A stretch of DNA of 64,000 nt from an uncultured Gammaproteobacteria bacterium (GCA_964385285.1 CAYLOJ010000002.1:67246-131245); one strand, 5' to 3'. Shown: positions 9,561-64,000, counted from the stretch's first letter. Notes: generated by a model not told the origin, from the sequence alone. Numbers and translations are program-made.

Positions 9561-9574
9561 CATAACATTGTTCC

Positions 9575-16000: not shown

Positions 16001-18255
16001 CACTAACCAATAACACTACCGTGTTAAGTCATATTAGTATTTCTAGTGACGGTACGGTATTAACGCTGGAGCGCAATCGCAACATCGGGTTTAGTCGGGA
16101 TTTTGAAATCATTATCCGCAGTAATGATGCGGTTGTTGGTGGAACAGATCATCACTCAGGAATTGTAGATGCCGAAACCGGTGTCGCAGTTGGTTGCACA
16201 ACAGAAATGGATACGCTTGGCTTATGTAATGAGGGTTATATTCGCTATACCTTCACTACCAGTAGTCGGTCAGTGTATGAAGATAGTTGTGGCCCCTCTT
16301 ATGTATTGTTAGAAGCAGATAGTCAGTCGTTTATGGATAAAGACTATACCTTTAGTGAATCTGGCCAAGAGGAAGATATGAATGCCACCGTTTACGCTGT
16401 AGGTGTGGATGGTTATGCTGACAACGGCTTAACAGATGCCAACAGTGATGGTGTAGATGACGGAGTAGATGATCAACCGATCACTCGTATTGATGATGGC
16501 GTGGATGCTGGTTTTTGGTGGGAGTATGCCTGGGATCCTATTTATGACACCCTAGAAGATTTAGAAGCCGCTGCTTGTCCTGTGGCTGGCATTATCACTG
16601 AGGATGAAGCCGGCAGCTGTAGTTGTGAGATCACAGAAAGTTGTACGATTGCTTTGGGTAGTGAATCGTGCACAACTGGTAATGGCGTGACCTGTTATAC
16701 CGATTCACCGAATGCAGTTTGTGACGCGTTTGATTCAAACTATTCTGCATCCGGTTGTGCTTGTACCGTTGAAGATAGTTGCACAATGTTGGCGGCTGAA
16801 GCGAGCTGCACAACAGACGTGAATGGTACGGATGTAGAGTGTTCTACTGATTCCAGTTCGGCAGTGTGTGACGCAGGTGACACTAATTGGAGCGATGGTA
16901 GCTTTATTGAAGATGAGGCTACTCAAACGTTGACTTCTGATACCCCAGATGCCAACGCGGATAATACCGATACCGTGACCGTGACCGTGACAGGTAGTGG
17001 TTCTGTAGAAGATGGTTGGGGCAATAGCGGCGCCACTACTGATGATTTAACTGATAGCCTGCTCTACGATTTTGTCTACTGCAATCCAGATTATTTAGTC
17101 ACCTACAGCAATACGGCGTATAACTTCTATTGGTCATATTGTCGTGGTACGGATGCACAAAGTGAAAGTTTCTTACCAGAGTTTGACCAGGTCTTTAGTC
17201 GCAGCGATACCGCCATCGATACCGCCTACGGTAGTGATCAAGAATTTATCTATGAAGTAGGATTCAAAGATACACGTGCCGCTACGAATGATCCCACCAC
17301 CAATAATAATATTATTGTCTTGCGGGTTTATCCGAATGACTTAGATGCTGATCTCACTACGCCTGCCGATGCAGTCAATCCGGATCTTTGGTACTTACTT
17401 AACACCAATAATGCTGACGCGCAGACCGCAACCACAACAGTTGATGGGTATGATGCGGTAGAAGTAGGGAATACTGTATATGTCGCTGCCAGTAATTTAG
17501 ATGATACTTCAAGTGTGATTGCGCCGTATGTGTATGTCGTAGCTTACAGTACTGATGCCAGCGAGGAAACGGTGAGCGCTGCCGAGGCTCTCTTGGACGG
17601 CTTCAAATTTAATCGCAATACTACATTGTCGGATGAATGTGCGATTGAAAAGAGTAAATTAGTGGAAGATACTGACCGTGTGACTGATTTAGGGTCAGTA
17701 GCCTATTTACTGAGCGGTTATTACTACAATGATTCCGATGCTAATGACACTGACGATTTCCCAGCTTTGGATAGTGGGTCCTATATTAGTGGTCTAACAA
17801 CATCTGTTTGGCCATCCTGGGCAGATAATCTTGGAGACGAACTAGGACAGGCTCTGCCAACAGATCCAACCAACACATTTAATGATGCCAGTGTTCAATG
17901 TCCGTATGATCCACCAGATTTATCTATTGGTGAAACAGCAGGGACATATTATGACGAGTCTGGTACGTGTTGGGATCCAGTGTTGAAGGATTTCAACGGA
18001 CCTGCAGAATCGCATGTCTACCTCTATCAATATCAAGATGCAGATAACTTCGCTTTGTATTCTAACTTAGAGTACGATGGAACGGGTACGTGGATTAGCG
18101 GTAGTTATAATCCTTGCGATCAGTATGTGGACGGCACTAACGTAGCTACAAGTATTAGTGATTATTCGGATAATGGTTGCAAAACATTTGATTACGCAGT
18201 CGACAATAGTTTGACGACTGATAATACCGTCTATGCCGACCTTTTCGCCGATTGA
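10015..18255 (+). CDS. Giant (2746 aa) secreted, extremely acidic, Cys-rich cell-surface protein. It has a signal peptide, a two-helix T4SS-pilin-like (VirB2/TrbC-type, PF18895-like) N-terminal membrane anchor, multiple IPT/TIG-like beta-sandwich segments, TSP3-like Ca-binding Asp repeats and repeated Cys-rich modules. There is no LPxTG motif and no C-terminal TM segment.
   Basis: Uninterrupted 8.2 kb ORF. N-terminus is MKKHTLKRAIQLFAISSFGWVISAQFAFA, then ...LWGGLTWMFSQGDEEKISKAKAILRNGVIGLTIVLAAWGI. IPT-like stretch (VTIRGNNF...IIVRVPDG). DQDADGMSDD...DTDGDGTIDSDESG. Modules such as CSCLSGTDTCNVAVGADSCAID, CTCTDLSSEETCTIDEGGVACL, CTCTTDLGDCDIDEGGTSCTV and CSCEITESCTIALGSESCTT. Confidence 0.9.
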   Translation: MKKHTLKRAIQLFAISSFGWVISAQFAFAQVNTAYDGFILGDASPIDIIIAIINWTLAILALIAVVIVLWGGLTWMFSQGDEEKISKAKAILRNGVIGLTIVLAAWGIATYVINLFLDLTDASTADYIPPGDVYEPSDGSPFYVDHSNPRDNEEDVPLCHIVAVTFSYPVNETSITDNSFQVTVAQDAASNPDGGRGNNESCADDVQCLSGICSDSGVCSGDRVEGSFAFSESDYAAVFYPAADYLADTLYEVELSTSVEGINPDTGAVYNLTAGDPKRIFNFTTGSSTDDIPPKVDVTSVTPYPSDGDTDMCLNPTIQVSFSESLDPASPSDENVWLYQDIASGPSDSLNISSIRLTSIGGEADDTIVTSPQQELSEFTEYGLNLYSGDSTTETFEGGIYDTCGNPLSGDFDDDMEGSPIDDFADPTSAGLEQAFCSCLSGTDTCNVAVGADSCAIDADTTCTLDTTCSDTSDDYVGFSYQWTFTTGDEPYCIPDIETISQEDYYYSEDLAPTGATGSEDSGKVLLTGSYLYPFYDLDFTNNMSAAGMNCFDTDHAANMSCFVSNVGSSIITVRTPVPSQTGRISVENNNGSDYSSQSAIIDSPFILNSSPTGGPAGQYVTIRGNNFLDYDPEDPSSSRGQVFFDDVEAEVLCTDGWDDDQIIVRVPDGFAVDAQPLMQVITTEGRYSNQEGFAITDGEPGPGLCEIVPSCSDTGLDDITAVGENFGADGTVYFDPSDGDYVEGVVSQWDVYNPTYASQTVVTDSTPVTERDVYNFTAANNDGISNGLDFEITCSEPPSLLQYFQCDLEADTYYLPNPTNYSDNACVNSVVYFGFTNAMDDTSVENNTAVYRCNNDDQFDDSACTTRIDGSYVSDYLNAAYIGGDSAELLNGTRDIDADGDTDASDAYSAYTFYPDGGFAAGYYYKVDVPITTTNRDGVQLDSDYSWHFQVRDDATNCVADYLALSPATERVNSYDSYDACIDNTTFEGTSYSFRARPATAECLVLDDAGDYEWEITQPASTDILKFGDNETSGDNPGTSTSDTSTIGYNTVCLQGEEEDNDGLATVSASLLDPADGSVAASDSSDVEVDFGYCTQDSDCYTDSCRDTYCDAVTSHCAPDITSFTPDNASGADVGPGGCVSLNGCYFGSSQDEGGSCTCTDLSSEETCTIDEGGVACLLQGAIDSCTLGQDFCTLDSTCSTESASANYDLGFFRGCDCTTTETSPRTCRVAEGETQCEVAGTETCSPTMTASNGTYTAGGSGEVAFDTTTASYPSTVICGDVWDQDQVIVQVPADGSVAPGDYALNLTSYYDLSDTYGTASGDASDCTVGSDPTACLCRVDPDSGHEGDTSDLYGENFSVLSGHNEKVTFDGPLSRVETDGTETWVDDNVITSAVVPDGAVSSDDGVQLESDVGDSNALDYAVSCSSNLDCATGCCSAGQCSSAEICNACENDTDCSYGQCASACVSGTCAPYIYEVSPDTGAVGQPVTFQGCHLGTYYDPSLYTPGSQVTIDGIVADLACNATDSWNNLRVIATIPDGVFSDATTDSALAQIQQVSTSNGTQVAQLSNQVQFNRDDSCSEVNLPVLCDADPAYSPVQTLADSVANIELSGENFNDESDGYCTCTTDLGDCDIDEGGTSCTVSSSTTYYVNPDFSSETCADGSVGAATSNAYSYYDGTLGYCVYTDPDDSSITCNIAVGASTCTISSSDTCYADEADPTTTCTAALSNFTALDGSVQYFDDLEATIDWSQYYSTQYITDVPEGSETGDVQAIATTSAGTQCTSNGLEFPVTCSSCGECGSTRTNALNCNLEYDPAFGSCTADTTGFCRANTGSCCNQTSCSYDSNVSDTEDLGTCEAQPLLEFDDQDADGMSDDYELTLGGYDSTLQDTDGDGTIDSDESGLFNNNNALTTIDSVTYPTPNATDVCSNAEIKIQFNQPITTSDVFNLNDNDVTADDPDTDIDESVVDDLFTDDVAPEDIDFTDYIYLRAATGADPLTNNTTVLSHISISSDGTVLTLERNRNIGFSRDFEIIIRSNDAVVGGTDHHSGIVDAETGVAVGCTTEMDTLGLCNEGYIRYTFTTSSRSVYEDSCGPSYVLLEADSQSFMDKDYTFSESGQEEDMNATVYAVGVDGYADNGLTDANSDGVDDGVDDQPITRIDDGVDAGFWWEYAWDPIYDTLEDLEAAACPVAGIITEDEAGSCSCEITESCTIALGSESCTTGNGVTCYTDSPNAVCDAFDSNYSASGCACTVEDSCTMLAAEASCTTDVNGTDVECSTDSSSAVCDAGDTNWSDGSFIEDEATQTLTSDTPDANADNTDTVTVTVTGSGSVEDGWGNSGATTDDLTDSLLYDFVYCNPDYLVTYSNTAYNFYWSYCRGTDAQSESFLPEFDQVFSRSDTAIDTAYGSDQEFIYEVGFKDTRAATNDPTTNNNIIVLRVYPNDLDADLTTPADAVNPDLWYLLNTNNADAQTATTTVDGYDAVEVGNTVYVAASNLDDTSSVIAPYVYVVAYSTDASEETVSAAEALLDGFKFNRNTTLSDECAIEKSKLVEDTDRVTDLGSVAYLLSGYYYNDSDANDTDDFPALDSGSYISGLTTSVWPSWADNLGDELGQALPTDPTNTFNDASVQCPYDPPDLSIGETAGTYYDESGTCWDPVLKDFNGPAESHVYLYQYQDADNFALYSNLEYDGTGTWISGSYNPCDQYVDGTNVATSISDYSDNGCKTFDYAVDNSLTTDNTVYADLFAD

Positions 18256-33206: not shown

Positions 33207-33860
33207 CTAAAACTGGCTAGCCAATAGCGGATGATCGAGCTCACTCCAGCGGCCCTGAGCAGCAATTTTGCCCTCTTCTAAAATCATTGCCGTATCACTC
33301 AAATAACGTGCCTCCGGAAGATCGTGTGTAACATACAACACAGTGAGTTGCTGTGTAGTGACGATCGTTTTGAACCACCGTACCAACTCAACCCGCGTAA
33401 TGCTATCGAGAGCCGAAAATGGCTCGTCACACAATAATAATTGCGGTTGATAACTGAGTACACGTGCTAACATGGCGCGTCGCTGTTCACCTCCACTGAC
33501 CGCATTAGGATAACGGTTGGCTAGATGAGTGAGGTGACAGTGCTCGAGCAGTGCTTTGGTCCGCTGCTGTTGAACGGTTTTGGGCAGATGTCGGATACGC
33601 AGTGGGTAGGCGATATTTTCACTGATGGTGAATTGAGGGAATAAGGTAAGGTGTTGTTCTAAGTAACCGACTTGATTTGCAGTGTAGCCAGCGATGCTGC
33701 CCGTGTAAGATTCTAATCCGGCGACACAACGTAATAAACTGGTTTTTCCAGAACCAGACCGGCCTAAGATGCTATGGATACCAGGTGATAACGCAAAACT
33801 AAGATCATTTAAAATGGGATGGGGACCGTAGAAAAATTTAAGATTGGCGACGGTGAGCAT
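33207..33860 (-). CDS. ABC transporter ATP-binding protein
   Basis: Walker A GRSGSGKTS, signature LSGGEQRRAML, Walker B LLLCDEPFSALD. Confidence 0.9.
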   Translation of the reverse strand: MLTVANLKFFYGPHPILNDLSFALSPGIHSILGRSGSGKTSLLRCVAGLESYTGSIAGYTANQVGYLEQHLTLFPQFTISENIAYPLRIRHLPKTVQQQRTKALLEHCHLTHLANRYPNAVSGGEQRRAMLARVLSYQPQLLLCDEPFSALDSITRVELVRWFKTIVTTQQLTVLYVTHDLPEARYLSDTAMILEEGKIAAQGRWSELDHPLLASQF

Positions 33861-35229
33861 ACGCAGAGTAATGAATGATCAGTTGTAAGAGGAAGAGTAC
33901 TATGAGTAGCGTGATCAGTGCCAGACCACCCACTTGATAGCGGTAGCTGCCAAACAGACTGTAAGTGACTTGCATGGCAGTAGGTTGTGCATTGGGAGTC
34001 AACAGACTAGCTAGGGCAATATCGCCCAGGACCAACACCACGCCGATCGATAATAATTGACGCATGGCCGGCCATAACCACCGCCACTCCAGGTGAAGCT
34101 GCTGCCATCGATTTGCACCTAATATTTTGGCGGTTTCCAGTAAAGCGGGCGGTAGTTGACTATATCCACTGTGAACAAGATAACTGCCAAGTGGAAGTAA
34201 GCTGATACAGAGCGCGGCTGCTAGACTACTTAAACCTTGTCCAAAGTAAGTGAGCCACAGGGCAGCAACGGTGACGGGAGAGAGTGTCAGCAATAGAAGT
34301 GTCCAGTTACGCGCTCTTCTCAGCAGTACGCTGAGGATAATGCTTATGCTTAATACTACGAGCATTAGCAGTAAACTGCGCAGTAAACTTTCACCAAACT
34401 GACTGCGCCACAGAGTTTCTATAGTTGTAGTGCTAGTGTGCAGAGCGATGTGTGTGATTAGGCTAAGTAGTGGCGCCAGGAGAGCTAGTGTGGCCAACCA
34501 ACGCAGGAGCATTACACTGTGGATTGGACGCAGAGTACTGGGCACAAAGTGTTGTGTAGGTGTGGGTAGGGAGCGTATTACGATGAGGATAGGTAATACA
34601 AAGATCAAGGTTTGTACAATCGCCACACCTAAGGCTAATTCGGGTTGATGCAATAGTTTAATCTGTTCGTAAAGCCAGACCTCAACTGTTTTCGCAGTGC
34701 TGCCACCGAGTTGCAGCGGTAGGGTAAAACTGGTCCAGCAATAGAGAAAGATTACTGCGCCTATCCCTAGGACGGTACCTTTTAATTGTGGCCACCAAAT
34801 GGTCTGCATGATCTGCCAGCGAGAGGCACCTAAAAGGCGCGCGGCCTCCTCGGTGTGCTGTGATAGGCGTGCCAAGGTCGCGTGGGTGGCTAAATAAGCC
34901 AATGGAATATTATAGTAAAGATGGGCCAAAACGACTGCCGATGGGCGATAGAGTAATTGAATTGGGGGTAAGTGCAACGCATGCAGCAGTGTATTTAGAT
35001 CACCGGCTTGACCGAACAGTTGAACAAAACCGGTACTCACGAGTAATGGTGGTAAAAATACTGGCAGGGTACAGAGTGCCGACCACCAGCGCGGGGTGAT
35101 AGCTTGGTAACGCCGCTCCAGTAATGCAAAGCCTGAACCCAGTAGTAGGCTTACCGCGGTGACAATACTACTTTGCCAGAGCGTGAACTTTACTATTGGC
35201 CAAAGATCCCATTCCATTGATTTAACCAA
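33838..35229 (-). CDS. ABC transporter permease with two fused transmembrane domains (FbpB/ThiP-like, of the iron(III)/thiamine/spermidine importer type)
   Basis: 463 aa with about 12 TM helices and two EAA-like loops; overlaps the ATPase and SBP genes. Confidence 0.85.
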   Translation of the reverse strand: MVKSMEWDLWPIVKFTLWQSSIVTAVSLLLGSGFALLERRYQAITPRWWSALCTLPVFLPPLLVSTGFVQLFGQAGDLNTLLHALHLPPIQLLYRPSAVVLAHLYYNIPLAYLATHATLARLSQHTEEAARLLGASRWQIMQTIWWPQLKGTVLGIGAVIFLYCWTSFTLPLQLGGSTAKTVEVWLYEQIKLLHQPELALGVAIVQTLIFVLPILIVIRSLPTPTQHFVPSTLRPIHSVMLLRWLATLALLAPLLSLITHIALHTSTTTIETLWRSQFGESLLRSLLLMLVVLSISIILSVLLRRARNWTLLLLTLSPVTVAALWLTYFGQGLSSLAAALCISLLPLGSYLVHSGYSQLPPALLETAKILGANRWQQLHLEWRWLWPAMRQLLSIGVVLVLGDIALASLLTPNAQPTAMQVTYSLFGSYRYQVGGLALITLLIVLFLLQLIIHYSAYAHRRQS

Positions 35230-36161
35230 GTGGTGTAATTACTATTGATTTGCAGATCAGTCAGTGATCGTAACTGATCCGGTGTTGGCTGAATCAGTTG
35301 ATCATACGCCGCTGGCACTGTCGCGTCTTCTTGAATAGGGAACATCCACTGTGTGGTGGCAATTTGATTCTGCACGGAATCGGTCAGTAGATAATAGATA
35401 AACTGTTGTGCAAGCGTGGTGTGATCATCACGCGTGATCGCCACATACTCGGTTTGCTTAAGATAACCATCACTAATCGGTACGGCTCGATAACGATCTG
35501 TCCCTTCTTGATCAAGGTGATACGCTGGGCTAGTGACATAACTTAACACAATCGGTGCTTCTCCATTTAAGAAGAGGGAATAGTATGCGGTGTTCCAATC
35601 TGGAGTTACGGTGAGTACTTGTTGGTGTAATGCCTGCCAAAACTCAGTCGTATCATCGCCAAATACTGCCTGACTCCATAGCAATAACTGTGTGCCCGGA
35701 GAGGACAATCCCGGTTGTTCAATAATAATTTTATTTTTGTATGCAGGGTCTTGCACTAAGGCCTCTAAACTGATCGGTTGATCAAATTGAATCGCTTCAC
35801 TGTCATAGACAAAATCCACATAGCTGTAATCGAACGCAGTGGAATCGTAAAATAGTCCGCGGTTATCAAAGCGGGCTAAATCCGTATTATCCATCCCCAA
35901 CACAAGGTCTGCCTGTGGATCGGATTGTTCAGACACAAGCTGATTCATCATCGCGCCAGTGTCAGGGAAACTGACAATGTTTAGTTTCACGTTATTCGCA
36001 GTTTCAAATTCGGGTTGAATTTTGGGAAGTAGACCGTAGTCTGCCGCCAAACTATCATAGGTATATATAGTCAGTGTGGCCGGCGCATTGATAGGCGTTG
36101 TGCTAGTTTGAGTACAGCCTGTGAGGGCAATTAAACTGCAAATGATGAGTAGTTTTTTCAT
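35193..36161 (-). CDS. ABC transporter substrate-binding lipoprotein (FbpA/TbpA-like). The ORF extends to 36236, but the likely start is MKKLLIICSLIALTGC at 36161.
   Basis: Lipoprotein signal with lipobox LTGC; periplasmic-binding-protein-like sequence. Confidence 0.8.
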   Translation of the reverse strand: MKKLLIICSLIALTGCTQTSTTPINAPATLTIYTYDSLAADYGLLPKIQPEFETANNVKLNIVSFPDTGAMMNQLVSEQSDPQADLVLGMDNTDLARFDNRGLFYDSTAFDYSYVDFVYDSEAIQFDQPISLEALVQDPAYKNKIIIEQPGLSSPGTQLLLWSQAVFGDDTTEFWQALHQQVLTVTPDWNTAYYSLFLNGEAPIVLSYVTSPAYHLDQEGTDRYRAVPISDGYLKQTEYVAITRDDHTTLAQQFIYYLLTDSVQNQIATTQWMFPIQEDATVPAAYDQLIQPTPDQLRSLTDLQINSNYTTWLNQWNGIFGQ

Positions 36162-36172
36162 AGGTATTAAAT

Positions 36173-36196
36173 AAAAAATTCCCTTAAATAGGGAAT
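36173..36196 (-). terminator. Hairpin ATTCCCT-taaat-AGGGAAT with an A/T tract. On the minus strand it lies just after the sigma-factor gene and before the SBP start codon.
   Basis: 7-bp perfect inverted repeat at 36178-36184 / 36190-36196 with AAAAAA at 36173-36178. Confidence 0.45.
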
Positions 36197-36290
36197 ACAA
36201 CAAGCAGATACTCGCTGTGATTCCCTTCGCTGGCATTACCCAGATCAGGTGTAAAGGATATCTCTCAGCCCAGCAGTTGCATGGGCACTC

Positions 36291-37394
36291 CTATACAGCG
36301 GTGTTACTATAGCGAGCGGATTGTTCCTTGGCAAGTTTGGTTTCCAATTGATCCTTGCCACGAGCAATACGGACACGGACCGTATTTTCAGGTTCCTGAT
36401 TTTCTTTGGCAATTTGCGAACCATTCAATCCATCCACCAGATGGCGCAATAGGGTTGTGCGTGTGGCGGCATGATCTAACGACTGAATCAACTGAACTGC
36501 AGCAGATCGATCTGTTCGGATAAGCGTATCTAATCGTGGAGTAATGCTATGCAGTTCGGGAATCTCCCCACCCATGTGTTCTGCCAAGATCCGACGATAG
36601 CGTGATAATAATAAACCAACTGCGTTTGGACTACGCTGCAGTTGGGTTGCAATTTCTTTGATCGGTAAATTATCAATTAATTGCAGGCGCAGTGCTTCAG
36701 CAGCGGTGGCGTTTGGAAGATCACGAATGGCTTGTTCCAAAGCCAAACGATCACCGGTTTGGGCATCGACTGCTGCAGGGCTCAAGACGGTATCTGCCTC
36801 CGTCACTAATGTTTGTAGTCGCAAACGGGCGCGGCGGACGATGGTACGGACAGTAGCCACTGGCACACCTTGTTCAGTGGCAATTTCATCTGCCGTTTTT
36901 TCATGCAGGTAATACGCATCAATCATCGCTATTTTTTGCGGCGTCAATTCATTGGCTAACTGCTGGCGGGCACGCTGATACGCCTGGAGTTCTTCATGCG
37001 TGATTAATGCATCCACGGTAGTGATCTCATCGGCAGTTAAGTTTACGAGGGCATCTGGATCGCTCGAAGCATTGCGGGGGGATTTTATGTGATCCAGGGC
37101 GAGGCGTTTACTGATGGTCGTCAGTAAACCAGGTACGTTACTATCGACCTTTAACTGTGTACGGCGTTCCCAGACCTTTTGAAAGGTTTGTTGTTTGATC
37201 TCATCTGCTATTTCAGTGCGTTTCACGATACCTAAAGCTGTGCGCCAAACGATCGCTGAGTAGCGTTCATAAAGGCGATCAAAAGCCGTCTGGGCAATAC
37301 TCTCATCCGCATTTTGCAGAGCCAAGACTAGCGTTTGTAACTCTTCAGTCGGTAGAACCGTTGGACGTTCATTGGCATTACGAACCATGAGCAC
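36291..37394 (-). CDS. Sigma-70/ECF-family sigma factor with one sigma-2 region followed by three tandem sigma-4-like HTH domains (unusual architecture), of intermediate GC
   Basis: Region 2: FDRLYERYSAIVWRTALGIVKRTEIADEIKQQTFQKVWERR. Three sigma-4-like segments: LTPQKIAMIDAYYLHEKTADEIATEQGVPVATVRTIVRRARLRL; LPNATAAEALRLQLIDNLPIKEIATQLQRSPNAVGLLLSRYRRIL; TLLRHLVDGLNGSQIAKENQEPENTVRVRIARGKDQL. Confidence 0.75.
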   Translation of the reverse strand: MLMVRNANERPTVLPTEELQTLVLALQNADESIAQTAFDRLYERYSAIVWRTALGIVKRTEIADEIKQQTFQKVWERRTQLKVDSNVPGLLTTISKRLALDHIKSPRNASSDPDALVNLTADEITTVDALITHEELQAYQRARQQLANELTPQKIAMIDAYYLHEKTADEIATEQGVPVATVRTIVRRARLRLQTLVTEADTVLSPAAVDAQTGDRLALEQAIRDLPNATAAEALRLQLIDNLPIKEIATQLQRSPNAVGLLLSRYRRILAEHMGGEIPELHSITPRLDTLIRTDRSAAVQLIQSLDHAATRTTLLRHLVDGLNGSQIAKENQEPENTVRVRIARGKDQLETKLAKEQSARYSNTAV

Positions 37395-37520
37395 AGTGTA
37401 GTAAATAATTGATATCCTCTCAAGATATTCGTATGAATATCTGGATAGGACAGTGGGCGAGGGTACATGTGTACACCTCGCCCCGACCTTCCCCGAAGGG
37501 ATGATCGTTCCTCCTGTCTT

Positions 37521-38961
37521 CTACAGGTACAGGCTGCCGGCGGAGAAGTCGCCGCGGCCGTGACCCTCCACAGTCGCGAGGGCGGCCCAGAACGAACCGG
37601 GGCGGATCAGCTCATCCCAGCTCAGCGGGAGGTGGGACCGCAGGAACTGCTTCGGATCTGCGGCCAGCAACTTGCGGGCCGCTTCCTGCCAACGCCCGAT
37701 GAGACGGGCGTGGCGCAAGTCCACGGCCCAGAGACGATTCGAGTCGTCCACCGGAAGGTCCACCCGACGGATCTGCTCGGTGATCTCTTCCACCGACACC
37801 TGCGTGGCATCGCCGAGGCGGGCCGGGCAGAAGAAGTGGTCGGTGACCACGGGAATTCCCAGGCCGGGCAGATTGACGCTGAGCATGTTCGTGATGTCGC
37901 CATGCTGCGAGACCTTCAGGTCGTCCGCGATGCCGGCAGCGAGCGTGCGGGGCGTGAAGCCCAGCAAGCGCGCTACCAACAGTTCCCAGAGCTCCACCGT
38001 GAGGTAGGGGCCCAGGTTGCTGAACGCCACCGAGTGGACCTGATTCACTTCCGAGAGCTTCGTCATCTCCTTCACCAGGCGCTGACGCTGGCCGTAGGAG
38101 GTGGGCTCCGGGTGGAGATCGGACTGGATGTACGTGCCACTCCGAACGAAGAGGCGCATCATCATCTCGATGGCGGCGCCAGCCACGGCTTCCGCCGAGA
38201 CGACCTCCATCATCCCAATGCAGGTGATCGCGATCGTCTCTTCGAGGCCGAACTGGCCGTTCTCGCCACAGCGCACGCCGACTCCGGTGTACTCGCCGTC
38301 CAGCTGGAAGGCGACCGGGTGCAGCGCGTGCTTCGGCAAGAACTGGCTGAAGGCCATCTGCGGAACGGCGTTCCCGACCGTGATCGGACCGTGGAACGGA
38401 GTTTCGAAGCCGATCATCCCGCGGGGGACGACCCGCCCGACACGCCGACCAGGCGTCCGGCCGAGCAGGTCGAGCTGCCCGCCGTGCACCGAGGCGGCGA
38501 GGTTCTTGCGGATGAGACCGGGTGCGATGTCCCCGTTGCTTGCCTCGTTGTGGGTGAAGCCGAGATTCATCCCCATGCCGCCGGTGGCCACCGTGCCGAT
38601 GTCGATCCAGGGGATCCCGGACCGCACGATCGGCTCGATGACACCGAAGACGTAGTCGATGACGTACTTGGCGATGTCACCCTGCTTGGAGGCAAGGCTT
38701 GCGATGTTCACGCTGTCGATGATGGCGATCGGCGTGAACCGGGCCACCAGCTTCTGCATGAACTGGGGGTTGAAGACGTCCACCTCCGGACCCGTGACGT
38801 ACTCGACGCCGGGGAGCGGGATGGGGTGGGGCCGACGGTCGACCACCACCGGCTTGAACGGAGACTCAGTGACCCCCGGGAAGGAAACGGCCTGGAGCTC
38901 ACGCACGATGGCGTGACCAACCAGACCGGCACCTCCGAGGATCAGAACGGTTCCGAGCATG
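37521..38961 (-). CDS. NAD(P)-binding Rossmann-fold protein of 480 aa, possibly saccharopine-dehydrogenase or homospermidine-synthase-like; function unresolved. GC-rich. The ORF extends to 39149, but the start is at MLGTV (38961) with a GGAGG RBS.
   Basis: N-terminal VLILGGAGLVGHAIVREL dinucleotide-binding motif. The overlapping plus-strand ORF 37467-38987 is Arg/Pro-rich antisense. Confidence 0.55.
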
Positions 38962-39067
38962 GAACCTCCCTTACTCTGGATTGTTGATGAACACACGCAG
39001 ATCAAAGGCATCTGCGCGGGAACATTCTGCTGATTTAGTTGTAATGTGTCAAGGGCAAATGATGCGT

Positions 39068-39934
39068 CTATTTCTGACACTGTGGACAATAATGGGTGCC
39101 CCGACCTGCGCAACGGGTTTTCTTGATGATGGCTTTGCACCGACTGCACGGTTCACCATCACGATCGTAGACTTTGCGTTTATTCCAGTAGGATCCAGTT
39201 TTACCATCCACTCGGTAGTAATGACTAAAACTAGTGCCACCTAATTGGATGGCTTCTTTCAAAATATCTCGACTCGCTGTAAACACGGCTTTACGTTCCG
39301 TAGCAGTGAGTGTGCCAACTCGGCGCATCGGTTTTACTTTGGCTTGCCAGCAGATATCATCGGCATAAATATTTCCGATACCAGCGATTGCTTGCTGGTT
39401 TAAGAGTACGGCTTTCAAACTCGTATTTTTCCGACGGCGTAAAGTGTTTTCAAAATAGTCTAAGGTAAAGGTCTTTTGAATGGGTTCAATTCCAAGATCT
39501 TTGGAGATAAAATACTGTTCAATGTCAGAAGAAGAATATAGTTCTACATAACCAAATTTCCGCATGTCATTAAAAAAGAGTTTACTCTTATCACTCAGAG
39601 TGAATTCAACTCGCGTATGGTGATTTGGTAGGTTGGTTTGTTCTTTACCCATGGTGTGCCCACCTAAAAATTTGGGCTGTTTGTCTTGATATAGCAACTG
39701 ACCAGTCATTTTGAGGTGAATCACAAAACCGTAACCAGACTTTAAATTGATTACCAGCCATTTGGCTTTGCGCTCCACACTGACAATCTTTTTAACTAAG
39801 ACAAATCTCTTAATTTCAGCTGGTGTACCCTTAAATTTTTTCTTTTCGTAAACTTTAAGATTCGTGATCGTTTTACCAACAACGTATTTTCTTAGGCCAC
39901 GGGCAACTGTTTCTACTTCTGGTAATTCTGGCAT
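39068..39934 (-). CDS. mutM: Formamidopyrimidine-DNA glycosylase (Fpg/MutM). The ORF runs to 40048, but the start is at MPELPEVE (39934). Low-GC gene between two GC-rich genes.
   Basis: N-terminal MPELPEVETV (catalytic Pro2/Glu3), H2TH domain, C-terminal zinc finger CSRC...CPQC. Confidence 0.9.
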   Translation of the reverse strand: MPELPEVETVARGLRKYVVGKTITNLKVYEKKKFKGTPAEIKRFVLVKKIVSVERKAKWLVINLKSGYGFVIHLKMTGQLLYQDKQPKFLGGHTMGKEQTNLPNHHTRVEFTLSDKSKLFFNDMRKFGYVELYSSSDIEQYFISKDLGIEPIQKTFTLDYFENTLRRRKNTSLKAVLLNQQAIAGIGNIYADDICWQAKVKPMRRVGTLTATERKAVFTASRDILKEAIQLGGTSFSHYYRVDGKTGSYWNKRKVYDRDGEPCSRCKAIIKKTRCAGRGTHYCPQCQK

Positions 39935-40010
39935 CAAAAAAGTATAGCATAGAAATGACAAAGCCCAGGTCCTCCACGGCTGGGCTTGTCCTCCTTGAGT
40001 TGTGGTTGTT

Positions 40011-40964
40011 CTACTTGCGTCGCCATGTCCGGTCGGAGGCGTTCTCACTCGCGTAGAAGCGGTTCAGCCATCTGGCGAGTACGGTTGGGTCCTCGTCGAA
40101 GCGACTGAGATCACCGCCACGGGCGAAGAACCTCAGTGCATCGGTGATTTCGTAGACGGTCGCGCGAGCCTGGCCGTTGATGTATGGCGCGAAGTTGCGC
40201 CAACCCTCAGCGTTGTCAGCGCGCAGTGCGACATTCACCCAGTAGACACCGACCTCACTGCCACGTGTTGCGCTCAGCAGTTCGAGGGTGCCCAGGTAGC
40301 GCGGGGGCAGTTGTTGCTCCCACTCCGCTAGATCCGGGATGGTGTCGGCGAACTTGCGTCTTGCCTCGGCGAAGCGCTCGGGCGTATAGCGCTGATCCGG
40401 GAGGATGACGATGGCGATGCCGCCTGGAGTACGCTTGGCCCGTGCCACTACGCGTTGCACCTGGTAGCGAAACCACCACCGCGCGAAGCTGTGCAACTTG
40501 CGCTGCAGCTGCGGCCAGCGCTTCCAGAGCGACCACTCATGAAAGCGAATTGCGAAGATCGCCAGACCTAGTCCCCACAACCCCCAACCCATCGGGTTGA
40601 AGATGTGCGAACCTTTGAGGACGAAGGCGATACGCCGGCTGATGTACAGCCCGGTGATGTACGCTACCGTCCAGGTCAGGATGGTGGGTGGATGCTTGAA
40701 CAGGACGATCTTGAGTCGATTGTCCTGCCGATATTCACCCGTGAAGTTGAATTCCCAGTTGAAGTTGATCGGGCGGAAGCACCAGTCATTGACTTGACGT
40801 CCCCACCACCAGGGCATCTGACTTAGCGGATGATAGGCTGTAAACCAGCCCATCGTTAGGCGCCAGGTCAACCCTCCAAGGAAGGCGATGATGCCCTCGA
40901 CGAGAGTGAGGAGAGCGAACCGCACGGCATACTGCCAGGGGTTCGGATTACGAGACGTCTGCAT
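40011..40964 (-). CDS. GC-rich hypothetical membrane protein with N-terminal TM helices and a cytoplasmic C-terminal domain of about 150 aa. Likely start MQTSRNP at 40964 with a GGAGG RBS.
   Basis: Trp-rich hydrophobic segments; no recognisable family. Confidence 0.5.
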   Translation of the reverse strand: MQTSRNPNPWQYAVRFALLTLVEGIIAFLGGLTWRLTMGWFTAYHPLSQMPWWWGRQVNDWCFRPINFNWEFNFTGEYRQDNRLKIVLFKHPPTILTWTVAYITGLYISRRIAFVLKGSHIFNPMGWGLWGLGLAIFAIRFHEWSLWKRWPQLQRKLHSFARWWFRYQVQRVVARAKRTPGGIAIVILPDQRYTPERFAEARRKFADTIPDLAEWEQQLPPRYLGTLELLSATRGSEVGVYWVNVALRADNAEGWRNFAPYINGQARATVYEITDALRFFARGGDLSRFDEDPTVLARWLNRFYASENASDRTWRRK

Positions 40965-41023
40965 AAGACCTCCGGGTTGTGGAAGAGCATAAGGCTGCTG
41001 CAGAGTAAGGAGTATTGCCCGGA

Positions 41024-41052
41024 TTGTCAATGCAAAGATCACATGCTAAACT
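41024..41052 (+). promoter_or_regulatory. Candidate promoter TTGTCA-N17-TAAACT giving a near-leaderless transcript for the 41063 gene and the helicase-nuclease gene
   Basis: -35 at 41024-41029, -10 at 41047-41052, ATG at 41063. Confidence 0.4.
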
Positions 41053-41062
41053 AGTTTTCATT

Positions 41063-41407
41063 ATGGTGGCTAAACCCAAAACAGTTAAATCGACACGCAA
41101 GAGCGTGCCAGGAAAAAAATTTAAAGAGGTGAGTATTGTTGAATTTTTAAATGTAAAAAAAGTTGAACGCAAAACGGACTTAATGCGTTTACTGACCCAC
41201 GTTGTTCAAAATTACACGAAAGACAAAGCCGTGTTGGTGCAGGCCAAAACAACCGTCAATACCATTGAGTACCGGGTTTTGAATAAACGTGTGGCATTGG
41301 CATTGGCGACACACGCGCAGGCAGCCTTCAAACAACATCATCCCACCGTTACTGTGACTACGCCAAACGACAGTGCCTATTGTCGCATTGTGGTTGAATT
41401 TAATTAG
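41063..41407 (+). CDS. Hypothetical small protein (114 aa) with a Lys-rich histone-tail-like N-terminus (likely start MVAKPK)
   Basis: AKPKTVKSTRKSVPGKKFKEV is followed by a domain of about 90 aa with no recognisable family; it is co-directional with the helicase-nuclease gene 20 nt downstream. Confidence 0.5.
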   Translation: MVAKPKTVKSTRKSVPGKKFKEVSIVEFLNVKKVERKTDLMRLLTHVVQNYTKDKAVLVQAKTTVNTIEYRVLNKRVALALATHAQAAFKQHHPTVTVTTPNDSAYCRIVVEFN

Positions 41408-41427
41408 TTTGAATCGTTTTTAATTTT

Positions 41428-44406
41428 GTGGCCGTTGAATTGGGTGCTGAATATTCAGTTCAGTATCGACTGCTGAACGCAGAACAACGCCGGGCTGTTG
41501 ATCATGTCGATGGTCCGATGTTAGTGTTGGCAGGAGCAGGCACAGGCAAAACGCAGATTATTGCTTTGCGGATCGCCCAGCTATTGCAAACTCAAGATCT
41601 TGAGCCCCGTAATATTCTCTGTTTAACTTTCACGGAAAGTGGCGTACAGGCCATGCGTGCACGCTTAGTTAACATGCTGGGTGCCACCGGCTATCAGGTG
41701 CGTGTACACACCTTTCACGGGTTTTGCAATGAAGTGATCTCTGAGCATCCTGAGGTGTTTTTAGCACAGTCCGCATTAGCAGCAGTATCCGACTTAGATC
41801 GCATCACCATTTTGGAGGAGATCATCGCAGACTTACCGGTTGATCATCCGCTGAAACCGTTTGGAGCTCCAGATTTTTATGTACCGGATTTACTTCGGGC
41901 GATTCAAACGTTGAAGCGAGAAAATATTTCATCCGAAAAGTTAACTGAGTTAGTAGCGGCGGGTGCAAAATTGGCCGAAGCTGAACCTATAGATAGTAAA
42001 GATAAACGGCGTTTAGCGGCTTTACAACGCCAAGTGCCTAAGCAGCAAGCTTTAATTGAGGTGTATCAACTCTATCAAACTAAGCTGCGCGAGCGTCAGC
42101 AATATGATTATGAAGATATGTTGCTCTACGTGATTAAGGCCTTTCAAGAACATCCGGATTTACTGGCTGATTTTCAAGAGCAATACTTATATGTATTGGT
42201 AGATGAATATCAAGATACGAACGGTGCGCAAAATGAAATTGTACATTTGTTAGGCGCCCATCAAGACGCACCAAACGTTTTTTTGGTGGGGGATGATCGT
42301 CAGTCGATCTATCGTTTCCAGGGGGCGGCTGTAGAAAACATCATCTTGTTTCAACAGCAGTATGGAGATGCCGCGGAGTTGGTGAGTCTCAAAGAAAATT
42401 ATCGTAGTCAACAATGGATCTTAGATGCGGCCAGTGCAATGATTCAACACAACCAATACAGCTTGGCGCATTATATTCCGGAGCTACAAACGGATCTGCA
42501 CGCGGCGCGTGAGTTGCCCTTAGCAAAAATCGAATTAGCGGCGCTCAGTTCTACAGCTACGGAATTGTTCTGGGTAACGCAACGGATCAGCCAGTTAATA
42601 CAATCCGGCGTGGCCCCACAGGAGATCGCAGTGTTGTTTCGTACCAACGGAGATGGCGAGGCGATGCGTGATGCCTGTGTGCGCCAAGGCATCCCTATTC
42701 AATTATCCGCCGGTGGGAATATCTTGGCCGATCCATTGATTCAACAGTTAATCCGTTTATTCCGTTTCATTGGCAGTAGTGGCAATGCGGAGGACCTCTT
42801 CAGCATCGCCCATTTTAGCTGGCTACAGTTGCCGATAGCTACGGTCGCACAATTAACGTATCAGGCAGCCAAAGCCAAACGTTGGCTATGGGAAGAATTT
42901 CAAATGTCTGATGATCCAGCGATTACTCAATGGACAACTAAACTACTCGAGTGGCGTACACAGATGCACAATCAGGTATGCACTCAATGGTTTTCTAAAG
43001 TGGTTGAGGAATCAGGTTGGTTACAATCCGTGATGCATACTGAACATAGCTTAGAGCATCTCAATCGTTTACAAACTCTGTTTCAAGCCATTCAAAATTT
43101 GTGTCGCGTAGACGTGACGACAACGATTAAAGAGGTCTTAGAATATTTAGACTTACTGCAGAAGCACGATCTCATGCTGGAAGAGTCACCGCTGCAAACG
43201 CAACTGCGTGCCGTGCAATTAATGACTGCACATCGGGCGAAAGGGTTAGAGTTTGCTCATGTCTTTATGATTCGCTGTCAAGATAAAAAATGGGGGAATG
43301 TGCCAGATCGTGCCAAGGTAAAATTACCGGAGGGGATTATACAATTACCGCCCGATGAAACCGTTGATATCAAAAATGAAGATGAACGTCGTTTGTTTTA
43401 TGTTGCCATGACGCGCGCTAAGGAACATCTCTACATCAGTCACGCCACCCATTCAGATACTGGTCGTGCTGTTCTGCCCAGTCAATTCATTGCGGAATTA
43501 CCAGTCGACATTATCGAAGCGGCAGCAGATGTCGCCACCGTGGAAGCAGAACCACAAGAGCGTTTATTGCAGGTCGGTACCGCACACGCTGCAGAGCCCA
43601 GTGCGGATTACCAGGCATTCGCCCAAGGTCTACTTGTCGATTATCGGATGAGTGCGACGCATTTAAATGATTATTTAGAATGTCCACGCCTGTTCTTTTA
43701 TCAGGATCTTTTACGTGCTCCGCGCGCGGCTACCCGTGCGGTCGGTTTTGGAATTGCCATCCACAACGCATTGCGTTTTGCCAGTGAACAATTTAACCAA
43801 ACTCAAGTGCTGCCCGCATTCGAGGAGGTCTGGGTAGTGTTCGAAGCAGACTTGCAAAAACAACTACTATCAAAAACCGATTATGCCGATAGTTTGGCAT
43901 TCGGGAAAACTACTCTCCAGCAATATTATACAGAGCAGTCCGCAGGGCTAATGCATAATCATTTTCCTGAAAAAGATTTTAGACCTTACCGTGTAGAGGT
44001 CGATGGTGTACCGTTAACCGGCAAGATCGATGGTATTGCGATTCAGGATGAGGCCGCCAAGTTAGTGCACGTCATTGATTATAAAACCGGCAATCCAGAT
44101 AATAAGAGCAGTGATTTAGCCGCAGGTGGCAACTATCATCGTCAGTTATTGTTTTATAAACTACTCTGTGATCATGCCAAAGGGTTTGGGTACACTGCAG
44201 TGTCTGGCGAGATAAACTTTGTGCAGATCAGTAAACAGAAACAAACCTATATCAAACGAGAATATGAATTTACTGAAGACGATGTACAGCGTACGCGCGA
44301 GGAAATTAAGACCGTTTATCAACATATTCAGCAGTTAGATTTCTTACAACCAGATCCTGCGGATCTCTGTGGGGAATGTACCTGGTGCACATTATTAAAA
44401 ACTTAA
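41428..44406 (+). CDS. UvrD/PcrA-family SF1 helicase fused to a C-terminal PD-(D/E)XK (RecB/Cas4-like, Cys-cluster) nuclease domain; an AddA-like single-chain helicase-nuclease
   Basis: Walker A VLAGAGTGKTQ, motif Ia LCLTFTESG, motif II VDEYQDTNGAQ, VGDDRQSIYRFQGA, and a second RecA-like domain. The C-terminal nuclease has the D/E-K core and Cys residues (...ECPRL... DLCGECTWC). Confidence 0.9.
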   Translation: MAVELGAEYSVQYRLLNAEQRRAVDHVDGPMLVLAGAGTGKTQIIALRIAQLLQTQDLEPRNILCLTFTESGVQAMRARLVNMLGATGYQVRVHTFHGFCNEVISEHPEVFLAQSALAAVSDLDRITILEEIIADLPVDHPLKPFGAPDFYVPDLLRAIQTLKRENISSEKLTELVAAGAKLAEAEPIDSKDKRRLAALQRQVPKQQALIEVYQLYQTKLRERQQYDYEDMLLYVIKAFQEHPDLLADFQEQYLYVLVDEYQDTNGAQNEIVHLLGAHQDAPNVFLVGDDRQSIYRFQGAAVENIILFQQQYGDAAELVSLKENYRSQQWILDAASAMIQHNQYSLAHYIPELQTDLHAARELPLAKIELAALSSTATELFWVTQRISQLIQSGVAPQEIAVLFRTNGDGEAMRDACVRQGIPIQLSAGGNILADPLIQQLIRLFRFIGSSGNAEDLFSIAHFSWLQLPIATVAQLTYQAAKAKRWLWEEFQMSDDPAITQWTTKLLEWRTQMHNQVCTQWFSKVVEESGWLQSVMHTEHSLEHLNRLQTLFQAIQNLCRVDVTTTIKEVLEYLDLLQKHDLMLEESPLQTQLRAVQLMTAHRAKGLEFAHVFMIRCQDKKWGNVPDRAKVKLPEGIIQLPPDETVDIKNEDERRLFYVAMTRAKEHLYISHATHSDTGRAVLPSQFIAELPVDIIEAAADVATVEAEPQERLLQVGTAHAAEPSADYQAFAQGLLVDYRMSATHLNDYLECPRLFFYQDLLRAPRAATRAVGFGIAIHNALRFASEQFNQTQVLPAFEEVWVVFEADLQKQLLSKTDYADSLAFGKTTLQQYYTEQSAGLMHNHFPEKDFRPYRVEVDGVPLTGKIDGIAIQDEAAKLVHVIDYKTGNPDNKSSDLAAGGNYHRQLLFYKLLCDHAKGFGYTAVSGEINFVQISKQKQTYIKREYEFTEDDVQRTREEIKTVYQHIQQLDFLQPDPADLCGECTWCTLLKT

Positions 44407-62189: not shown

Positions 62190-62357
62190 GATAGGGAGAT
62201 ATTTTATTTGAAAGCCCTTTCGTCCTTGTTCTTATGAACTGGACTCATCAGTTGAGGTATTACCTCAAGAGGGTGGTGAGCGGAGTCTCGTGGTTGGATC
62301 GGCGCGCAGGGCGTCGAACACAACACGATGAGACTCACACTCAGTACCCTCTACACA

Positions 62358-62750
62358 CTACTTCTTGTAGCACCCGACGCGAATGCCGCCATACCGATCA
62401 CCGGGCAAGGCATTGACTTCGATCATGCCAACCCCGGTTTTTACAGGCCTTGGACATTGGTTGTCCCAGGCAGTGGCGGCCGCAATGGCACGGTCGTAGG
62501 CGAGAGATTGACCCTCGTCAACTTCTGCCTTGCCCCAGGCCGATGGAATGCAGGTGTAACCCTGCGCCTCCATGGCCTTGAGTTGACCACACAACTCGGA
62601 GAAGCTGTGGGTCATGGGGGCTCCCTGCCTTGCGATCAGCGCGGAGTTGATGAAGTAGGCCTGATCTCCCTGCGCGAGGAGTTGGATGGACTCCTCAGCG
62701 AAGGCGGTGGAGAGGCAAGAGACGAGGACAACTGAGAGCAAACGGCGCAT
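62358..62750 (-). CDS. Small secreted protein (signal peptide, 4 Cys, about 130 aa) in GC-rich DNA; possibly a DUF1311/LprI-like periplasmic protein; family not established
   Basis: MRRLLSVVLVSCLSTAFA signal peptide. AGGAG RBS 5 nt upstream. The ...AWDNQC... tail is loosely reminiscent of DUF1311. Confidence 0.55.
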   Translation of the reverse strand: MRRLLSVVLVSCLSTAFAEESIQLLAQGDQAYFINSALIARQGAPMTHSFSELCGQLKAMEAQGYTCIPSAWGKAEVDEGQSLAYDRAIAAATAWDNQCPRPVKTGVGMIEVNALPGDRYGGIRVGCYKK

Positions 62751-62777
62751 GGGCGCTCCTGAGGAAAAAGATGAAAT

Positions 62778-62927
62778 GTTCTTCGCTTGCTGTACGTGGA
62801 CAGAGTAAAATCAATCCAGATACAGCAAGCAAAGAACTGTAGTGTGTAGAGAGTTGTTAAAGAACGATCACGGAAATAATTTATTTCCGTTCAGTGACGC
62901 TTTCGATTAAGAACGCATCACTGAACG
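62778..62927. repeat. Cluster of three inverted repeats in a GC-rich intergenic region: 17-bp arms (62778-62794 / 62821-62837, 1 mismatch), a perfect palindrome CGGAAATAA-T-TTATTTCCG (62871-62889), and 13-bp arms (62888-62900 / 62915-62927, 1 mismatch)
   Basis: Read directly from the sequence, between two minus-strand genes. Confidence 0.6.
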
Positions 62928-62999
62928 GGACGGGAGCGGTGACTGTCGACGTGAATGCTTGCGCATCCGTGTCGAACCTTGTCACCGTTCCCGGTATCC

Positions 63000-63515: not shown

Positions 63516-63848
63516 GTGAATTAGCCTCCAAGGCTTGGTGAAGTGTGACTAGGAAGTTGGAAAAGAGCGACTGACTACTGCATTATCCCGCGAATTACCT
63601 GGTTTGAAACTAGGTCAAATGGGGATAGTTCACTGAACTCGAGTGAGCTCAAAATGAACGTATCAGTATAGATCTGCTGCTGAATTTGTTCAGAGCTAAA
63701 AAGTGCATAACTAAAAAATAACCAATCATTATTGGGTATAACGTATCCTATCCACTAGTCAGTAACTAGAAACTTACTGATCACTGCATAGGCCGGGAGA
63801 GAGGAAATATTCAACTCTCATCCCGGTGTCCTCCGCGGACTACTGCTA

Positions 63849-64000
63849 TCAGTTCGTCGTCAACAGATAGACCCCGAATCGGCCGATCGCACCGGCAATG
63901 AGAGCGGTGATGACCAACACGATGTTGATCCCCACCGCGCGAATCAGCCAGCCCGGGCCCTCCAGGACCTCCTTCAGGGTAGGCATGCCAGCCAATCCGA
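63849..64000 (-). CDS. 3' end of a GC-rich membrane-protein gene that continues beyond the window (...KEVLEGPGWLIRAVGINIVLVITALIAGAIGRFGVYLLTTN*)
   Basis: Open minus-strand frame to the window edge, with a stop at 63849-63851. Confidence 0.3.
   Translation of the reverse strand, partial: GLAGMPTLKEVLEGPGWLIRAVGINIVLVITALIAGAIGRFGVYLLTTN

Follow-up and report, generated by a model that had tools for sequence, protein, structure and literature searches.

GC-rich single-gene islands in a Kerfeldbacteria-type genome: probably long-resident accessory genes whose composition may be actively held

Introduction

Anomalies of base composition are routinely put down to a horizontal transfer of recent date and, where the genome was assembled from a metagenome, to contamination that has to be cleaned out. 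The closest described case is the horizontally acquired genomic island, for which Lawrence and Ochman reportedly put forward the amelioration model in 1997. In this work we analyse a stretch of 64,000 nt, called here the window (GCA_964385285.1, CAYLOJ010000002.1:67246-131245, deposited as an uncultured Gammaproteobacteria bacterium), in which seven genes, islands A to G, are far richer in G and C than the DNA around them. Like acquired islands, they combine an atypical composition and codon usage with sharp boundaries, accessory functions and a patchy distribution, and in some related loci (L033/L034, L028/L030, L036/L037 and L113) the same families drift towards the composition of their genome, as the amelioration model has it. 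Unlike acquired islands, they are single genes, with neither flanking repeats nor tRNA genes and with no identifiable donor; and, unlike in the amelioration model, their atypical composition has survived speciation and the near-saturation of synonymous sites, with no decay in the lineage formed by the window and L116. Our favoured interpretation, to which we would give about half of our belief, is that the islands are long-resident, lineage-restricted accessory genes of Kerfeldbacteria, whose GC-rich make-up is held in this lineage.

A second system that invites comparison is bacterial GC-biased gene conversion, a fixation bias towards G and C that affects all codon positions and goes together with recombination of the genes concerned (Lassalle et al. 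2015, PMC4450053). The islands resemble it in the balanced flux at high GC seen here at codon positions 1, 2 and 3, and in the divergence of one of them, D, which is out of step with that of its flanks. The effect reported for bacteria is a modest shift of GC content at third codon positions (GC3) in recombining core genes, whereas here the GC3 difference is about 0.4, single accessory genes are concerned and the enrichment stops at the start codon. For the Patescibacteria or candidate phyla radiation (CPR), it has been reported that ancient transfers escape detection as their composition assimilates (PMC12455944). That work deals with the same organism group and likewise describes accessory genes and genomic islands, but the islands studied here are old and yet compositionally conspicuous. 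The literature that we searched holds no description of persistent GC-rich genes in CPR genomes.

Results

GC content was mapped over the whole window with a 500-nt profile and a 100-nt segmentation. Six abrupt high-GC blocks (57-65% GC) stand out against the 44.9% GC of the remaining window, at 1-1100 (island A, 60.5% GC), 7481-8460 (B, 59.4%), 37441-39020 (C, 64.9%), 39941-41020 (D, 59.1%), 62221-62780 (E, 57.1%) and 62901-63560 (F, 60.9%), and a seventh, small GC-rich gene (G) lies beyond them at 63849-63986. Islands A to G hold one coding sequence (CDS) apiece, of 57-66% GC and GC3 0.71-0.87, which is 9-14 standard deviations (SD) above the GC3 of the 34 other genes of the window (0.418±0.033). 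The reading frame chosen is the one with the highest GC3 in every island, and those of A to D are supported by homologues at the protein level. Background fourfold sites have 52% GC, GC at twofold sites reaches 0.89 in C against 0.29-0.30 in its flanks, and lysine makes up 0.14-0.42 of lysine plus arginine, K/(K+R), in the products of the islands, where the background has 0.54. The enrichment sets in at the start codon and ends past the 3′ hairpin.

The sharp jumps at gene boundaries which a preliminary description of this DNA had pointed out are therefore visible both in sliding-window GC and in the GC3 of single genes. The same is true of its observation that mutM/fpg (39068-39934, minus strand; 40.8% GC, GC3 0.38), a housekeeping gene which serves below as the anchor for synteny comparisons, is AT-rich between two GC-rich genes, C and D. 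Its limits for the islands need correction in two places. The sigma-factor gene at 36291-37394 had been placed inside an island, but with 48.6% GC and GC3 0.43 it belongs to none, and the island begins at about 37441 and not at 36290; and the block drawn at 62230-64000 is indeed GC-rich but not continuous, being made of three genes (62358-62750, 63000-63515 and 63849-63986) with AT-rich spacers between them. A strand bias was considered, as six of the seven islands lie on the minus strand, and was set aside since they are clustered, hence not independent.

The junctions between the two compositions are real. A Logan contig (SRR12487046) is 100% identical to the window over 38182-40517, across both mutM junctions, though it may come from the same sample as the window and so shows only that a second assembler agrees. 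The order UvrD-like gene, small gene, GC-rich D and AT-rich mutM recurs in L116 and L117 (SRR32119618/-645), in L030 (SRR22387934) and in L028 (a GenBank genome assembly), and in L116 a GC-rich C follows mutM as it does in the window. The islands are not chimeric, and the preliminary description, which had argued for real integration, is borne out on this point by the independent assemblies and by the conserved junctions. As to the organism, an ultra-small bacterium with a genome of about 45% GC, the adenosylhomocysteinase of the window falls in a cluster of at least 90% identity with a protein named Candidatus Kerfeldbacteria, one D homologue bears the same name, and domains typical of the CPR occur both in the window (T4SS_pilin) and in related contigs (DUF5671/DUF5667).

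Synteny gives the age of two of the islands. D occupies the same locus (UvrD-like gene/small gene/D/mutM) in the window, L116, L028 and L030, and the flanks sort these four genomes into two pairs, the window with L116 and L028 with L030: the UvrD-like proteins are 83-90% identical within pairs and 62-63% between them, and mutM 89% and 80%, respectively. Fourfold sites of the flanks are identical at 0.32 between pairs (pooled) and at 0.34 between the window and L116, where about 0.26 would be full saturation. When C is compared between the window and L116, the stretch of some 110 nt from promoter to ATG, 5′ untranslated region (5′UTR) included, is about 90% identical, and the 3′ end of the gene has been kept as well, with AAGACAGGAGGAA after the stop codon and the stem of the terminator. 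Since both junctions of C are common to the window and L116, C was in place before these two split, and since D sits in the same slot of all four genomes, it was present before the deeper split. The aligned loci thus show that D has been passed on at a single locus across two or more levels of speciation, and C in place since the separation of the window and L116.

With ages of this kind the composition of C and D can be compared with what neutral amelioration would leave. In the model used, sites evolve towards the background fourfold frequencies (52% GC), starting either from a donor composition like that of L038, a contig described below, or from all-GC. Fourfold sites of C are identical at 0.476 (n=206) between the window and L116, with 0.406 expected by chance, which corresponds to some 0.5 substitutions per site in each lineage. 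Neutral decay should then have left a fourfold GC of 0.72-0.77, or of at most 0.66 on the flank clock (0.34 pooled); the observed value is 0.85-0.86. For D the observed fourfold GC is 0.73-0.74 and the prediction on the flank clock about 0.65, and its fourfold identity between the window and L116 is saturated (0.303 against 0.300) with GC still at 0.73. This comparison of composition with identity is, by itself, only moderately strong, so that it is the polarised substitution pattern that carries the argument.

Changes were polarised by parsimony with L006 as outgroup and sorted by strength (S for G/C, W for A/T). Along the branches to the window and L116, the fourfold sites of C have undergone 14 S>W, 10 W>S, 42 S>S and 2 W>W changes, its twofold sites 6 S>W and 3 W>S, and its codon positions 1 and 2 together 57 S>W, 55 W>S, 34 S>S and 20 W>W. 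The pattern of D in the same two genomes is 11 S>W, 5 W>S, 19 S>S and 2 W>W at fourfold sites, 6-7 S>W and 5-7 W>S at twofold sites, and 50 S>W, 49 W>S, 25 S>S and 8 W>W at positions 1 and 2. Other lineages behave differently: C in L033 and L034 shows 38 S>W, 3 W>S, 15 S>S and 2 W>W at fourfold sites, 16 S>W and 2 W>S at twofold sites and 82 S>W, 50 W>S, 13 S>S and 13 W>W at positions 1 and 2, whilst D in L028 and L030 shows 13 S>W, 4 W>S, 10 S>S and no W>W at fourfold sites, and 10 S>W and 3 W>S at twofold sites.

Simulations that include the bias of parsimony yield fractions of S>W, W>S and S>S changes of 0.48-0.65, 0.09-0.22 and 0.21-0.33 under neutral amelioration, and of 0.23-0.32, 0.06-0.11 and 0.57-0.69 under a stationary GC-rich process; those observed at the fourfold sites of C in the window and L116 are 0.21, 0.15 and 0.62, close to the stationary pattern. 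Neutral amelioration is rejected for this gene in these genomes (chi-square p 8e-8 to 1e-16). The difference between C in the window/L116 and C in L033/L034 is significant both for S>W against W>S (Fisher p = 0.0025) and for S>S against S>W (1e-6), as is that between retaining and decaying lineages with C and D pooled (Fisher p 2e-4). Statistically, and on small counts, C and D evolve in the window and L116 at an equilibrium of composition that is GC-rich, and they do so at each of the three codon positions. Given that the same families lose GC elsewhere, amelioration does operate on them and seems to be counteracted in the window/L116 lineage.

Large protein databases were searched for homologues of A, B, C and D. 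A has 2 relatives among 1.84e9 cluster representatives, and B 3 homologues in the protein databases, the one that was read (L032) having GC3 0.845 between flanks of 44-49% GC. D has 6 other homologues in 5.8e9 proteins, three of which were read at the level of the locus; they lie at the same locus in Kerfeldbacteria-type contigs and have GC3 0.73-0.79 amid genes at 0.36-0.50. C is the best represented, with 13 close homologues (42-69% identity) and a distant family at 25-28%. Where the contigs of the close homologues are readable they are of 42-47% GC (about 52% in L006), some of them carry domains typical of the CPR, and C is above the background there too. Its GC3 is 0.77 in L033, 0.92 in L035, 0.93 in L007, 0.61 in L034, 0.54 in L036 and 0.52 in L037, with flanks at 0.42, 0.46, 0.47, 0.43, 0.43 and 0.44 GC, respectively; in L005 and L113 it is 0.79 and 0.535, with whole-contig GC of 0.45 and 0.44. 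Every related genome that was examined has these families at a GC above its background.

This bears on the proposal, made in the preliminary description, of a recent transfer from a high-GC host to a symbiont: the best matches of B, C and D are in related contigs of similar GC, which is the outcome named beforehand as speaking against it. The distant members of the C family have the GC of their own genomes and belong to the high-GC Gemmatimonadota/Longimicrobiales. One member of the close clade stands apart, the gene of L038 (contig Ga0180429_10087226, only 2.1 kb), which has GC3 0.95, is 47% identical to C, is nested inside an otherwise CPR clade and follows a stretch of about 900 nt of 72% GC DNA with a fragment of an old-yellow-enzyme gene; on so short a contig, L038 may represent either a high-GC organism or a recent insertion. 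No carrier was found, as scans of viral contigs for B, C and D, a search of plasmids for C and a search of phage DNA for 36000-41500 gave no relative. The window has no tRNA gene, and the flanks of the islands have no repeats or target duplications longer than those of shuffled sequence, bar one 10-mer, GCCCCGACCT, at 37480 and 39098, which is not conserved as a repeat in L116. No integrase was found among those open reading frames (ORFs) of the window that were scanned.

Some further observations concern the relatives of C. In two unrelated contigs its homologue adjoins a gene of the GCS2 (glutamate-cysteine-ligase family 2) family, at 3242-4255 in L005 and at 10215-11048 in L031, and in L031 it also lies beside a glutamine amidotransferase; C may be functionally linked to GCS2, and the GCS2 gene of L005 is itself GC-rich (GC3 0.64). 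L007 is a 335-kb contig with a background of about 44% GC that is labelled 'uncultured Gammaproteobacteria', a label which looks doubtful. It carries several GC-rich islands (12772-14103 on the minus strand, 8987-9622 and 11453-12142), among them a POT-family peptide transporter (about 64% GC) beside the C homologue, so that the pattern is not confined to the genome of the window; C is co-oriented with the GC skew in this contig. The stop codon is TAG in C of the window and in 8 of 10 homologues (L116, L006, L005, L033, L034, L035, L007 and L037), whatever their GC3.

Turning to the genes themselves, C (CDS 37521-38960, minus strand; 479 aa, 65.7% GC, GC3 0.87) would have an N-terminus of the Rossmann, extended SDR-like, type and a C-terminal domain of the PF27054 type. 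It carries the motif LILGGAGLVGHAIV (Rossmann GxxGxxG type), its match to Epimerase is weak (16.8 bits, under the cut-off), and PF27054, an annotation borne by every close homologue and by the distant family, was not returned by the Pfam scan of C itself; among solved structures it has only weak Rossmann matches, none of them close. Its promoter-like site, TTGACA-17-CAGAAT, lies in DNA of ordinary GC at 39024-39052 (minus strand), its terminator hairpin at about 37441-37475, and a GGAGG at 37510-37514 follows right behind the stop codon. D (CDS 40011-40964, minus strand; 317 aa, GC3 0.75) has an open frame that extends to 41042, with the homologues beginning at the ATG at 40964, and is preceded by a promoter-like TTGACA-17-TACTCT. 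Its product is a multi-helix membrane protein in which the motif AFVLKGSHxFNPMGWGL is conserved; it matches no known family, and its predicted structure (pLDDT 43) is too poor for a reading of the fold.

Past the stop of D lies a conserved non-coding element (39950-39996, minus strand; L028 8212-8260, L030 8014-8062, L116 5939-5995). It has about 45 nt, made of GGAGGACA, a hairpin AGCCCAG-CCGTGGAGGAnC-CTGGGCT and then TTTGTCAT, is near-invariant in the four genomes, in spite of their near-saturated synonymous sites, and probably acts as a terminator. Its conservation goes beyond what a plain terminator needs, with GGAGGA in both the 5′ arm and the loop. A GGAGG resembling a Shine-Dalgarno sequence is found 0-20 nt past the stops of A, B, C and D (1054, 7553/7569, 37514 and 39994) and likewise in homologues of the Kerfeldbacteria clade (L116, L028, L030 and L032), in place of which C in other lineages ends in an ordinary terminator made of a hairpin and a T-run.

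The CDS of A (plus strand; 60.5% GC, GC3 0.79) runs off the left edge of the window and ends at 1037, with a GGAGG and a hairpin after its stop. The full product (P0145) has 390 aa, a signal peptide and mostly beta strands; it has no Pfam match, and its predicted structure (pLDDT 28) is too poor for the fold to be read. The all-beta sequence with its alternating residues is reminiscent of outer-membrane beta-barrels. Lineages of the Kerfeldbacteria type are generally thought to be without an outer membrane, and such a barrel would be odd there. B (CDS 7569-8441, minus strand; 290 aa, GC3 0.76) is an alpha/beta-hydrolase, as had been proposed (PF12697, 51.7 bits against a cut-off of 26.3, E = 2.3e-13), with a promoter-like TTGACA-17-TACAAC in AT-normal DNA upstream. 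E (CDS 62358-62750, minus strand) encodes 130 aa with a signal peptide at GC3 0.71 and F (CDS 63000-63515, minus strand) a membrane protein of 171 aa at GC3 0.81, neither of them with a family match in the Pfam scan, and G (minus strand) is an ORF of 45 codons with GC3 0.83, whose product resembles a small membrane protein. B, C and D have in common a perfect TTGACA box, a 17-nt spacer and upstream DNA of normal GC. The ribosome-binding sites (GGAGG/AGGAG before B to F) and the hairpins (after A, C and D) of the preliminary description are present.

Around the islands, mutM seems to be leaderless or nearly so (39934-39960, minus strand), as it lacks a ribosome-binding site and has a TATACT box that ends about 7 nt ahead of the ATG; relatives keep this box as TATACT or TATAAT. 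The gene at 36291-37394 (minus strand), outside every island, encodes a sigma factor of the extracytoplasmic-function (ECF) type with extra sigma-4-like domains; its 367 aa hold one sigma-2 region and three stretches like sigma-4 or helix-turn-helix (HTH), in keeping with the earlier reading of a three-sigma4 factor, and an orthologue, 37% identical, lies close to mutM in L030 (9503-10627). Unrelated to the islands is a thiamine pyrophosphate (TPP) riboswitch (RF00059) at 36205-36302 (minus strand; 61.6 bits against a gathering score of 54.3), the sole match in the Rfam scan of the window, which precedes an operon of a solute-binding protein and a permease (about 33838-36236, minus strand), presumably for thiamine uptake, and overlaps the start coordinate given in the preliminary description. 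The gene at 10015-18255 (plus strand) encodes 2,746 aa, with T4SS_pilin at the N-terminus and an Ig-like domain of the Big_5 family, and its product belongs to the giant surface proteins that are common in CPR genomes.

Discussion

How could single genes stay GC-rich in a genome that is not? The products of the islands are mostly secreted or membrane proteins, together with two enzymes, and each island would form a complete local transcription unit, with a sigma-70-type promoter, a strong ribosome-binding site, a GC-rich CDS and a hairpin terminator. The families may have first entered from high-GC bacteria long ago. For C, an ancient foreign origin of this kind, with later movement among these genomes, is plausible, because L038 lies beside 72% GC DNA, distant relatives live in high-GC phyla and the gene occurs in at least six contexts. 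In the window/L116 lineage, a fixation bias in favour of G and C would then act on the island genes. Its likeliest form would be GC-biased gene conversion at fast-evolving, recombining accessory loci; alternatively, selection could act directly on how GC-rich the DNA or mRNA is.

Biased gene conversion would account for the bias at all codon positions, for its lineage specificity and for the mismatch in divergence between D and its flanks, and does not easily fit an enrichment that halts at the start codon. Selection on the GC of the transcript or of the DNA would account for boundaries that match the transcription unit. Gene conversion is compatible with the balanced flux at high GC, which is seen at fourfold and twofold sites as well as at positions 1 and 2, but selection on GC predicts the same. 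Translational codon selection was also considered as the main cause and rejected as unlikely, since the GC3 of background genes has an SD of only 0.033 and the bias shows at positions 1 and 2, too, as well as in the choice of amino acids.

Other explanations have to be weighed against this one. That high-GC fragments were spliced into a low-GC contig, by assembly or binning, has nothing but the sharpness of the GC jumps in its favour and is next to inconceivable, given junctions that recur at 100% identity in the contig of a second assembler and are conserved in sequence between genomes, an architecture that recurs in four further genomes or contigs, obtained in different runs, and islands of exactly one gene each, every gene being equipped with a promoter-like site, a ribosome-binding site and a terminator. 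Recent transfers from a high-GC host into an episymbiont, with the composition of the donor not yet ameliorated, would readily explain a donor-like GC3 of up to 0.87 and a low K/(K+R), which is typical of high-GC proteomes, as well as the absence of C after mutM in L028 and L030, the 72% GC DNA with its old-yellow-enzyme fragment beside the C-clade gene of L038 and the distant relatives of C in high-GC Gemmatimonadota. Yet no donor appears, A, B and D having 2-6 relatives in billions of proteins; the relatives of B and D that were read at the locus level lie in low-GC contexts of the CPR type; promoter-like sites of the sigma-70 type stand in AT-normal DNA before B, C and D; D keeps its locus in four genomes, although the synonymous sites of the flanks are almost saturated; and C has its promoter, 5′UTR and terminator in common with L116, yet its fourfold sites are near saturation (0.476 against 0.406). 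For C and D this explanation is already contradicted, and for the islands at large we regard it as very unlikely.

Time without any retaining force is a more serious contender, even if an improbable one: one or a few ancient acquisitions, followed by slow, neutral amelioration. The fourfold identity of D across the two clades (0.41-0.45), with GC at 0.71-0.77, is consistent with decay from about 0.96, there is net loss of GC from D in L028/L030 and from C in L033/L034, and the homologues of C form a continuous range of GC3 from 0.51 to 0.93. Against it stand the changes of C in the window and L116, which are mostly between G and C with a balanced flux between GC and AT (p about 1e-7), a balance that holds at positions 1 and 2 too; the flank clock, which underpredicts the fourfold GC of both C (at most 0.66 against 0.85) and D (about 0.65 against 0.73-0.74); and the saturated window-L116 pair of D with its GC still at 0.73. 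We find it slightly harder still to believe in continual refreshment, in which GC-rich alleles would keep arriving from a high-GC pool (a host, a plasmid or another replicon) and the divergence would have accrued outside these genomes. Stationary divergence dominated by changes between G and C would be expected of genes that evolve inside a high-GC genome, D diverges out of step with its flanks, the C-clade gene of L038 has a high-GC context and a related contig carries a competence gene. However, the window and L116 share the AT-normal promoter, 5′UTR and terminator of C, so that replacement would need to be confined to the coding sequence; moreover, neither the 5.8e9 nor the 1.84e9 proteins hold a high-GC homologue of A, B or D, and the collections searched hold no viral, plasmid or phage carrier.

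The interpretation that we prefer, of old accessory genes kept GC-rich in their lineage, has difficulties of its own. A simple gene conversion acting over whole tracts is at odds with an enrichment that halts at the start codon and leaves the 5′UTR with a normal GC. The nesting of the L038 gene, beside its 72% GC DNA, within the clade of C suggests movement; the presence of C in at least six genomic contexts with GC3 of 0.51-0.95 could be read as an amelioration series after several transfers; and C is missing after mutM in L028 and L030. D has diverged further than the genes beside it (its identity is 58% between the window and L116, where the flanks have 83-89%, and 79% between L028 and L030, where they have 89-90%), which makes allele replacement possible, and in L028/L030 it resembles a gene in ordinary decay (13:4 at fourfold and 10:3 at twofold sites). 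The excess of C over neutral decay from all-GC is limited, about 3 standard errors on its own clock and more on the flank clock, and its pattern in the window and L116 does not fully agree with the stationary GC-rich process either (p 0.004-0.056), the misfit being extra AT-to-GC changes. The stationarity test, finally, draws on 68 changes in C and about 35 in D, at sites near saturation, in 2 of the 7 genes and with one sister genome, whose contig (L116) ends 83 nt after C.

With all this considered, we see the active retention of GC-richness in the window/L116 lineage as about an even call. A wider interpretation, which we put forward more tentatively, is that a gene- and lineage-specific bias towards G and C might hold orphan accessory genes, mostly of the cell surface, at a second equilibrium (GC3 of about 0.75-0.9 against 0.42); that this equilibrium might have outlasted the saturation of synonymous sites is part of the same interpretation and equally tentative. 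On this view, a small bacterial genome would run two base-composition regimes, both of them stable, next to each other, and an atypical composition would not mark a transfer as recent.

What can be said for C and D is that neither of the two usual readings of a composition anomaly, recent transfer or contamination, holds: these genes are old, vertically inherited and locally regulated. If the retention of their composition is true, the amelioration clock could not be applied blindly. Composition-based tools for the detection of transfers and for the cleaning of bins would then mis-date or delete such genes. The distinction between biased gene conversion and selection on GC is a long-standing question in the evolution of bacterial genomes, for which CPR genomes would, in that case, offer a compact natural system to separate the two. 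For the organism itself, the islands being secreted or membrane orphans plus two enzymes, their products could plausibly have a part in what goes on at the cell surface of an episymbiont.

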